64,000 nucleotides of DNA from assembly GCA_002099625.1 (NCBI GenBank), contig GCA_002099625.1_4857.1. One strand, given 5' to 3'. The DNA comes from Escherichia coli. Its GTDB lineage: Bacteria > Pseudomonadota > Gammaproteobacteria > Enterobacterales > Enterobacteriaceae. Below are positions 62,024 through 64,000 of the stretch, piece after piece; positions within the stretch are counted from its first letter, which is position 1, and every line of letters begins with the position of its first letter. The translations under genes and the position numbers were made by a program. The notes under the pieces are model-generated. The model was not told where the DNA came from and ran no database searches. It worked only from the letters and a program-made list of their open reading frames with translations.

Positions 62024-63538
62024 TTACACCTCTTCTTCTCGCAGTATGCGACGGTTTGCGTAATACGCACACCACAACCCATGATACTCTTTACCGATAT
62101 AGATTAAGAAGTAACGGATGTAGTATTTTTCAGGACGACACACCGCGATGTAATAACGGCCTTCGGGTTCTTTAATACGGTTGATTTCCGTACGCGATGG
62201 AATATCGATACCGCGAGTCAAAATAACCGAGACAGGTCGTTTACCCATCGGAAAGTCAATCTTTAACGTTATTGACTTATCGACGCTACGGTAGTATTCC
62301 TTAACAGGCTTACCTTTGTCATCGAACAACAAGTCAGTAATATCATTTAAGACATAACCCTTTTCCTGATGCAGAACATCTCTCAACGTTGTAGCGAGTT
62401 CGTCACGAATATCCAGCGCACGGTACGACAATAAGGGCGGGCGAAGCATTCTGGAGATGGCCAGGTCTTCAAAGAACCAGACATTGGAATCTTCTCCACT
62501 GAAATGCATCTTGTCTGCCGGTAATCCATCACCTGCCACGTCAACGAACTTCTTACGTTTAACGAACTCATTGTTAACAACACCGATTGGATCATACTGC
62601 CGCATCTTCGGTGTATCTTTCCATGCCAGGGCGGCGTGGTTGTTTACAATCGTGTAGATGTTATCCCACGGTTGTTTAGTGAACATTACGGAAAAGTGTG
62701 CATCAGGAATCATTTTCCCAATAAACACCAAGTCGTCCTTGTTCTTTGCATGGTTGCCACCAAACATGTAATAGAAAGTTTCATCTTTCACTTTTACAGT
62801 AGGATGGTCCTCGTTCACCAACGGATAGCAATATTTAACCGTACAAATCGGCGGATATGCCGCAAGGTTCATCCCAGCGGCGATGGGCTCGGGTTCCGCG
62901 GATGCAGGCAACTCATCCTTCGACCAGTACGGCTGATATGGAACGCCGTCGTTGGTCGCTGTGATGGCTGAACCTTTTCTAGCCAATTCGTCCGCCCGGT
63001 CGTTACCGTAGTGGCCGGAGTGTCCTTTGATTTTGATAACCTTAACACCCCGTCCTTCTTTTTTCATCTGCTGTTTGATTTCCCAGATACGAACAATAAG
63101 TTCTTTGTTCGCCAGCGGAGTACCGTCAGCACGAACCCAACCACGTTTATGCCAGCCGTCTATCCACTCGTTAAAAGTGTTTACAACGTAACTGGCATCC
63201 ACGTAGATGATATAGTTCTTCGCGCGGAAGGGCGCGTTCTCAAACAACGTGATGAAGGCGATTAACTCGCCCACATCTGAGTAGAACTCTTTCGGAACGG
63301 GAATAACGGCGTCGACAAATTGAACGGTGTCCGGCAACTCCGGACACTTCACATCCTGCGGCACTTTTTTGTATCCAACAGTGGTAATCCGTTCTGAAAC
63401 ACCCGGATGGCTATAAGCCTGACTGTCTTCCAAATCTCCGTTGTTGAATAAATAACCATGAATACCAGCCCCCGAACCTTTCGGGGACTCAGTATGACTA
63501 CCATCGGTATAAATAACCGCTACGTCGACGTCTTTCAT
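62024..63538 (-). CDS. RNase HI domain protein with about 290-aa C-terminal extension (504 aa)
   Basis: N-terminal VAVIYTDGS...GAGIHGY and YIIYVDASYVVNTFNEWIDGWHKRGWVRADG...KGHSGHYGNDRADELARKG parallel E. coli RNase HI (TDGS; [34 protein letters not shown]); C-terminal half has no recognised motif. Confidence 0.7.
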   Translation of the reverse strand: MKDVDVAVIYTDGSHTESPKGSGAGIHGYLFNNGDLEDSQAYSHPGVSERITTVGYKKVPQDVKCPELPDTVQFVDAVIPVPKEFYSDVGELIAFITLFENAPFRAKNYIIYVDASYVVNTFNEWIDGWHKRGWVRADGTPLANKELIVRIWEIKQQMKKEGRGVKVIKIKGHSGHYGNDRADELARKGSAITATNDGVPYQPYWSKDELPASAEPEPIAAGMNLAAYPPICTVKYCYPLVNEDHPTVKVKDETFYYMFGGNHAKNKDDLVFIGKMIPDAHFSVMFTKQPWDNIYTIVNNHAALAWKDTPKMRQYDPIGVVNNEFVKRKKFVDVAGDGLPADKMHFSGEDSNVWFFEDLAISRMLRPPLLSYRALDIRDELATTLRDVLHQEKGYVLNDITDLLFDDKGKPVKEYYRSVDKSITLKIDFPMGKRPVSVILTRGIDIPSRTEINRIKEPEGRYYIAVCRPEKYYIRYFLIYIGKEYHGLWCAYYANRRILREEEV

Positions 63539-64000
63539 TATTCTCCTCGCAACTGCGGTGGAACGTATTCACCTGTGCACATTTCGCGGTGGGCTTCTAA
63601 CATGCGTTCGAAGCCGTACGTACGCGCGACCAGGGCCAAATGATAGATGCGTGCCGTAGAATACGCTTCCTTCGCAGCATCAAAGCTAGCGTTATGCTCG
63701 TACGCTTCTTTGCCACGGGTCCAATGGTGCGCTTCTGCGTGCCAGTTCGGTTCCAGGCCAAACGCATATGCAATACGTTCTGCAGTCCGGTCAGAGTCCA
63801 ATATAGAAAACTTGCGGTACTTGCCCGGCGGGATATCGCACTGCGCGAATGCGTTCATCAGAATTGGAGCATCGAAATCGGGACCGCGCATGGTGATAAC
63901 CATTTTCACGTTGCCCAGATCATCCAACCATTTTTTGGCCGCCCACAGTGCTTCTGGCAGTGGAGTGGTCCCAGAAAACGCTTCAATACGTGCTTTCTCG
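63538..64000 (-). CDS. DEDDh-type 3'-5' exonuclease-like protein, C-terminal part (start lies beyond window edge)
   Basis: Reading frame stays open to nt 64000 (track start at 63927 is a TTG); motif EHNASFDAAKEAY resembles exonuclease motif III (H-x4-D). Confidence 0.4.
   Translation of the reverse strand, partial: EKARIEAFSGTTPLPEALWAAKKWLDDLGNVKMVITMRGPDFDAPILMNAFAQCDIPPGKYRKFSILDSDRTAERIAYAFGLEPNWHAEAHHWTRGKEAYEHNASFDAAKEAYSTARIYHLALVARTYGFERMLEAHREMCTGEYVPPQLRGE

Follow-up and report, generated by a model that had tools for sequence, protein, structure and literature searches.

Introduction

PhiKZ-related phages have no classical sliding clamp, no clamp loader and no recognizable primase, yet they always encode an RNase H1, as a 2021 comparative study pointed out (PMC7824862). 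For this reason the processive copying of the 240-280 kb genomes of nucleus-forming jumbo phages was a puzzle, to which the fusion of an RNase H with a clamp is the reported answer as far as processivity is concerned. Here we analyze a gene predicted to encode such a fusion, hereafter the RNase H-clamp gene, which lies near one end of a 64,000-nucleotide stretch of DNA deposited as Escherichia coli (assembly GCA_002099625.1, contig GCA_002099625.1_4857.1); this whole stretch is called the window. An earlier examination of the window, made from the letters and open reading frames only (the sequence-only reading), had proposed an RNase HI fused to a large C-terminal domain and placed it, together with an upstream exonuclease, in a two-gene nucleic-acid processing module.

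The closest described protein is PhiKZ gp155 (PhiKZ155), the product of a core gene of nucleus-forming phages that the phage requires for its nucleus to mature and its genome to be amplified; it shows RNase H activity in vitro, and its catalytic mutant D102N still complements (PMC12571901). Under the name Nlp2, gp155 enters the phage nucleus via Imp1/PicA (10.1101/2024.03.27.586873). According to a preprint dated 1 October 2026 (PMC13648687), the PhiKZ polymerase is a two-subunit complex with 1:1 stoichiometry, and a further protein, Rhc, consists of an RNase H and a clamp-related domain. In that account a single copy of Rhc binds the polymerase and double-stranded DNA, helps the thumb to grip the exiting duplex and strongly raises primer extension, and its RNase H domain, attached by a flexible link, is not resolved in the PhiKZ structures. 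Rhc is very probably gp155, because the only other RNase H of PhiKZ, gp199, is 143 residues long; gp199 was rejected as a candidate for Rhc on account of this length. The RNase H-clamp family is thus already known, having been described in PhiKZ in 2025-2026.

Results

A Seoulvirus ortholog of PhiKZ gp155

The 3 kb around the RNase H-clamp reading frame is 99.8% identical at the DNA level to about ten Salmonella phage SPFM genomes, including SPFM4, and 98.6% identical to Salmonella phage SPN3US. The SPN3US region that matches the rest of the window carries genes for a multisubunit RNA polymerase, the tail sheath, the terminase and the head protease. By these comparisons the window derives from an SPN3US-like Seoulvirus, that is, a nucleus-forming jumbo phage related to PhiKZ; Seoulvirus genomes are about 240 kb. 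The RefSeq annotation of SPN3US labels the counterpart of our reading frame (ACQ60_gp059) 'ribonuclease', and Escherichia phage vB_EcoM_EC001 encodes a protein that is 100% identical by tblastn, so the sequence is already public.

BLASTP aligned residues 5-494 of the 504-residue protein with residues 3-476 of the 482 residues of PhiKZ gp155 (E 8e-38, 26% identity). By tblastn, the RNase H-clamp match falls at one place per PhiKZ-like genome, and full-length matches were found in 185 phage records. Furthermore, the locus is bounded by related genes in both phages: the divergently transcribed virion gene gp063 of SPN3US resembles PhiKZ157 (1e-57), and gp052 resembles PhiKZ153 (1e-6). Sequence and synteny together therefore mark the Seoulvirus protein as a full-length ortholog of gp155. 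The two are of nearly the same length, and they share a two-domain architecture, full-length homology, an insertion in the RNase H domain, the catalytic Asp (PhiKZ D102 aligns with D114, as counted in the BLASTP alignment) and the position between orthologous virion genes. They differ in that identity is only 26% and in that the Seoulvirus gene sits in a longer minus-strand operon with a DEDDh exonuclease that is missing from PhiKZ.

The reading frame contains no internal stops, and the protein matches PHROG 3265 'ribonuclease' from residue 1 to residue 504 (profile positions 2-496 of 496, E 1e-189). This end-to-end match indicates that the C-terminal part is a regular portion of the protein family rather than a neighboring gene fused by a sequencing error. 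On this basis, and because the listed homologs mostly have 430-585 residues and carry the domain at their C-terminus, we rejected both an overlooked frameshift and an independent gene for the C-terminal part; the hidden frameshift or stop that the sequence-only reading had named as a way to overturn its fusion is not there.

The RNase HI domain

The N-terminal domain matches Pfam RNase_H (PF00075) at residues 89-190 with 78.4 bits against a cut-off of 25.8 (E 8e-22). A phmmer alignment to structures of E. coli RNase HI, combined with a residue look-up, equated E91 with E48, D114 with D70, H173 with H124 and D183 with D134, and D12 sits in the first-strand motif VIYTDGS. All four catalytic carboxylates are therefore present (D12, E91, D114 and D183, corresponding to D10, E48, D70 and D134 in E. 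coli), as is the equivalent of His124, H173. A basic protrusion, WIDGWHKRGWVRADGTPLANKEL, near residues 125-146, aligns with its counterpart in E. coli RNase HI, and in the model of the full-length protein the strands and helices follow one another as is usual for RNase HI. The five catalytic columns are kept in 169-174 of 176 family representatives (at least 96%), in an alignment made of the query and 175 full-length homologs, which were retrieved with a profile of the C-terminal domain or in another homolog search. On this conservation, the RNase H domain is predicted to be catalytically competent; substituted carboxylates, the other finding that would have told against the sequence-only reading, were not observed. 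That reading was thus right about an N-terminal RNase HI with its catalytic motifs, fused to a large C-terminal domain; it had given the RNase HI part about 215 residues, and the domain ends nearer to residue 200.

Relative to E. coli RNase HI, with which it has the DEDD carboxylates, the His124 equivalent, the basic protrusion and the strand and helix order in common, the Seoulvirus protein has a 40-residue insertion between strands 2 and 3, which the sequence-only reading did not mention, and a 300-residue C-terminal extension. The insertion (residues 32-72) stretches the D12-E91 spacing to 79 residues, compared with 38 in E. coli RNase HI, and explains why the Pfam match begins only at residue 89. 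PhiKZ155 shares it in the BLASTP alignment, whereas cellular RNase HI is without it. It is modeled with a predicted local distance difference test score (pLDDT) of ~89-94 and little regular secondary structure; E49 and the nearby P80 are near-invariant. The insertion might contact the polymerase or the substrate. The NCBIfam RNase H equivalogs give 70 bits against a cut-off of 160, a score so far under the equivalog threshold that the gene is not an ortholog of cellular rnhA.

The C-terminal domain and the linker

Sequence searches of residues 200-504 returned no match in Pfam, NCBIfam or the PDB, and the sequence-only reading had likewise recognized no motif in the last ~290 residues. Structure prediction adds what it could not see. 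An AlphaFold2 model of the C-terminal part, built from a 23-sequence alignment, reached a mean pLDDT of 85.5 and a predicted TM-score (pTM) of 0.83, and 21 of its top 22 structural matches are clamps or clamp-fold processivity factors (PCNAs, beta clamps, and the herpesvirus proteins PF-8 and UL42), with UL44 and BMRF1 lower in the same list. Foldseek against the whole PDB placed archaeal PCNAs and 9-1-1 subunits first, weakly (best E 1.9e-3, TM-score ~0.3). Against predicted viral structures (BFVD), the first matches are RNase H-fused homologs of Erwinia phage Wellington, Pseudomonas phage Noxifer and Ralstonia phage RP12; after these members of its own family come viral beta clamps, PCNAs and a herpesvirus replication accessory factor. 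The models thus suggest a sliding-clamp fold resembling a two-domain protomer. Since the structure scores are modest, we call the domain clamp-derived rather than a canonical clamp. The fold was predicted here independently of the preprint and agrees with it (PMC13648687).

The predicted fold of residues 236-504 is like that of DNA sliding clamps and processivity factors (PCNA, 9-1-1, T4 gp45, beta clamp, and herpesvirus UL42, UL44 and PF-8), and the processivity role reported for the PhiKZ protein is analogous to theirs. Residues conserved across the family in this domain include G274-K275, D279, P367, R373, D399-I400-T401, D445, P447 and R449. The conserved basic residues, K275, R373, R449, R475 and R497, are consistent with nucleic-acid binding.

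Between the two domains lies an acidic, proline-rich linker with weak conservation and variable length among aligned homologs. A model of the full-length protein has a mean pLDDT of 88, falling below 50 at residues 210-217, and a pTM of 0.56; the low pTM despite the high mean pLDDT indicates that the mutual orientation of the domains is undefined. The models therefore describe two well-folded domains joined by a flexible linker. A profile of the C-terminal domain, searched against 1.84 billion proteins, retrieved 782 cluster representatives and contributed 145 new representatives of 50%-identity clusters. Among the 150 matches listed, most span 430-585 residues and end in this domain, so that fusion is the normal state of the family. 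Fifteen are shorter (98-365 residues; P0052, P0058, P0060, P0086, P0091, P0114 and others) and may be fragments at contig ends or stand-alone clamp-like domains without an RNase H.

Proposed function

By analogy with PhiKZ, we put at roughly 85% the probability that the gene is the Seoulvirus ortholog of chimallivirus gp155/Nlp2 (by inference Rhc) and encodes a clamp-like polymerase processivity subunit joined to an RNase H. Going by PhiKZ homology, one copy of the C-terminal 270 residues, predicted to be built like a two-domain clamp protomer, would dock on a split B-family polymerase (DNAP-N plus DNAP-C), and the clamp-like domain and the polymerase thumb would together grip the duplex leaving the active site. 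This grip would give processivity to a replisome that has neither a ring clamp nor a clamp loader. The RNase H would cut the RNA of RNA-DNA hybrids near the fork, whether transcripts or R-loops on the template or primers, and the whole protein would work inside the phage nucleus. Within this scheme, the PhiKZ literature supplies the binding of polymerase and of DNA, the stimulated synthesis, the import into the nucleus and an essential role that is independent of the nuclease. The present analysis supplies the domain architecture, the conserved active site, the predicted clamp fold and the flexible linker, shows the gene to be orthologous to and syntenic with PhiKZ155, and finds the polymerase partner encoded in near-identical genomes. 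That partner, an ortholog of the PhiKZ gp082 polymerase subunit (34% identity), is encoded outside the window, in the near-identical SPFM16, SPFM19 and Lh1B genomes and in SPN3US-like genomes.

Several observations weigh against this assignment. At only 26% identity to the characterized PhiKZ protein, the polymerase interface may differ, and the equation of Rhc with gp155 is one that we infer. No profile ties the C-terminal domain to clamp families, RNase_H being the only Pfam family at E <= 1. Nor was an internal duplication detected: hhalign of the two halves of the clamp region, over the 176 family sequences, gave a probability below 1%. On the other side, an enterobacterial lineage at this same level of identity has kept the architecture together with an intact nuclease site and a flexible tether, which supports a replisome component common to the whole family. 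The feature is real and biologically unusual, and the database labels 'ribonuclease H' and 'ribonuclease' understate the function of the gene.

The upstream exonuclease and the operon

The gene directly upstream runs past the window edge (Table 1). Its complete SPN3US ortholog, ACQ60_gp060 ('3'-5' exoribonuclease' in RefSeq), has 239 residues and is identical to the window part at 151 of 153 positions. This SPN3US protein scores 35.3 bits against PF16473 (Rv2179c-like 3'-5' exoribonuclease; cut-off 27) and carries DLET at residue 19, GPDFD at 125 and HNANFD at 188, the DEDDh pattern; the window fragment alone stays under the threshold at 15.8 bits, and the exonuclease part matches PHROG 255 'exonuclease' (E 2e-29). 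With the Rv2179c-like DEDDh exoribonucleases it has in common a score that passes the Pfam cut-off and the motifs DxE, D and Hx4D; it departs from them in how low that score is and in having no NCBIfam match. Deposited names vary among endodeoxyribonuclease, exonuclease and exoribonuclease. By its motifs and profile score the neighbor is indeed a DEDDh exonuclease, with the Rv2179c-like enzymes as its family, as the sequence-only reading had recognized from HNASFD.

The exonuclease stop codon overlaps the RNase H-clamp start (TAATG), a GAGGAG ribosome-binding site lies upstream, and the next gene downstream begins after a gap of 1 nt; the overlap and the gap point to a tight operon. For that downstream gene, a mechanically called reading frame (61282..62082, minus strand) extends 20 codons into the RNase H-clamp gene, but PHROG and the SPN3US annotation favor the ATG at 62022. 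In a comparison of SPN3US 176321-189321 with PhiKZ 152000-164500, the minus-strand operon between the conserved flanks has ten genes in SPN3US (gp053-gp062) and four in PhiKZ (gp154-gp156.1). With the RNase H-clamp gene as the sole exception, no BLASTP similarity was found between the SPN3US operon genes (gp053-058, gp061-062) and PhiKZ gp154, gp156 and gp156.1; the open reading frames flanking PhiKZ gp155 are small and unrelated.

The exonuclease and RNase H-clamp genes also adjoin in Erwinia phages whose Rhc is 46-58% identical, such as Machina and EarlPhillipIV. A tblastn search found the exonuclease in 81 phage records, none of them from Pseudomonas, and detected no homolog in the Pseudomonas PhiKZ-like phages. 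This distribution, together with the unrelated neighbors in PhiKZ, indicates that the pairing belongs to one branch, enterobacterial and Vibrio phages, is absent from PhiKZ and is not a feature of the whole family. The clade-specific coupling is the only part of the locus that goes beyond published work and, with the RNase H insertion, makes up its residual novelty.

Table 1. Positions of the RNase H-clamp gene, its parts and its neighbors in the window
Feature	Position	Strand	Remarks
RNase H-clamp gene, complete	62024..63538	-	504 codons plus stop; ortholog of SPN3US ACQ60_gp059 and PhiKZ gp155 (Nlp2, very probably Rhc)
RNase HI domain, residues 1-~200	62939..63538	-	Pfam PF00075, alignment to E. 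coli RNase HI structures, strand and helix order in the model
RNase H insertion, ~40 residues (32-72), between strands 2 and 3	63323..63445	-	Family-specific
Interdomain linker, acidic, Pro-rich, residues ~203-235	62834..62932	-	Low pLDDT, low conservation
Predicted sliding-clamp-fold domain, residues ~236-504	62027..62833	-	Predicted structure
DEDDh exonuclease gene, 3' part, 153 of 239 codons plus stop	63538..64000	-	Ortholog of SPN3US ACQ60_gp060; runs past the window edge
Exonuclease motif II, GPDFD	63871-63885	-	Translation
Exonuclease motif III, HNASFD	63679-63696	-	Translation
Downstream gene, 246 residues	61282..62022	-	Ortholog of SPN3US gp058, PHROG 9472; starts 1 nt past the RNase H-clamp stop

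Discussion

The sequence-only reading had paired the RNase H with the exonuclease in a two-gene module that might remove primers or target RNA-DNA hybrids; as a rival explanation, this makes the module a dedicated one and the C-terminal domain its accessory. The TAATG overlap, with the translational coupling that it implies, fits such a module, as do the adjacency of the genes down to 46% Rhc identity in the Erwinia phages, the intact and conserved RNase H active site, and the annotation of the exonuclease family as 3'-5' exoribonuclease. However, the 81 records with the exonuclease compare with 185 that hold a full-length RNase H-clamp gene, and neither the Pseudomonas PhiKZ-like phages nor the surroundings of gp155 preserve the pair, which is therefore not a conserved unit. 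As for its purpose, the 5' RNA primer of an Okazaki fragment cannot be removed by a 3'-5' exonuclease (established enzymology), and PhiKZ D102N, the equivalent of D114, still complements (PMC12571901); the essential role of the PhiKZ protein is then independent of the nuclease, and primer removal is not the main function. We regard the dedicated module as improbable. Scarcely better odds attach to a narrower proposal, in which the coupled exonuclease is an extra, lineage-specific part of the replisome in the branch of Seoulvirus and the Erwinia, Cronobacter and Vibrio phages. There, together with the tethered RNase H, it might trim the 3' ends of transcript or R-loop RNA into primers, no primase being present, or clear the oligoribonucleotides that RNase H releases. 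If true, this would be a variant replisome that PhiKZ does not have; 3' RNA trimming by the exonuclease is speculation. A role as a proofreading subunit of the polymerase was also considered, in view of a remark on stand-alone 3'-5' exonucleases (PMC7824862), and is unlikely as a general solution, since the gene is missing from PhiKZ-like phages.

Two further explanations concern the C-terminal domain itself. The top structural matches (9-1-1, PCNA, gp45 and the African swine fever virus clamp) are ring-forming two-domain protomers, as would suit a true PCNA- or gp45-like trimer, with an RNase H domain on each of its three copies, in place of a monomeric clamp-derived subunit. We consider a ring very unlikely. 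A single subunit is reported for PhiKZ Rhc (PMC13648687), and this phage group has no clamp loader (PMC7824862). Herpes simplex virus UL42, among the clamp-fold factors, also acts as a single polymerase-bound subunit. The remaining explanation, that the domain serves mainly as a nuclear-import or shell-docking module that binds PicA/Imp1 and has a clamp-like fold incidentally, would account for the dependence of Nlp2 import on Imp1 (10.1101/2024.03.27.586873). It would leave the block in DNA amplification and the in vitro stimulation of the polymerase, as reported in the preprint (PMC13648687), without an explanation, and the conserved basic residues of the domain are consistent with nucleic-acid binding. 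Import and processivity are, moreover, compatible with each other, and we judge import as the main role to be the least probable of the readings considered. The processivity subunit orthologous to gp155 accordingly remains our preferred assignment.

Related records and a tRNA cluster

In the records LR535905-LR535913 (SPFM6, 8, 9, 10, 12, 14 and 15) and in SPFM1 and SPFM20, the region matches the window only in many short pieces (in some records at least 40), and truncated or garbled 'hypothetical proteins' stand where the RNase H and exonuclease genes belong. This pattern suggests many insertion and deletion errors of assembly rather than true variants. The short, low-identity 'homologs' of SPFM1, SPFM9, SPFM12 and SPFM20 were rejected as variants because their records match the window only piecemeal.

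At the other end of the window, positions 1443-3094 on the minus strand hold a tRNA cluster with four Rfam tRNA matches (1446-1518, 1529-1600, 1603-1672 and 3022-3094). Two of these are weak (32-36 bits) and may be degenerate or unusual tRNAs. ARAGORN calls two of the four, as tRNA-Asn(GTT) and tRNA-Trp(CCA).
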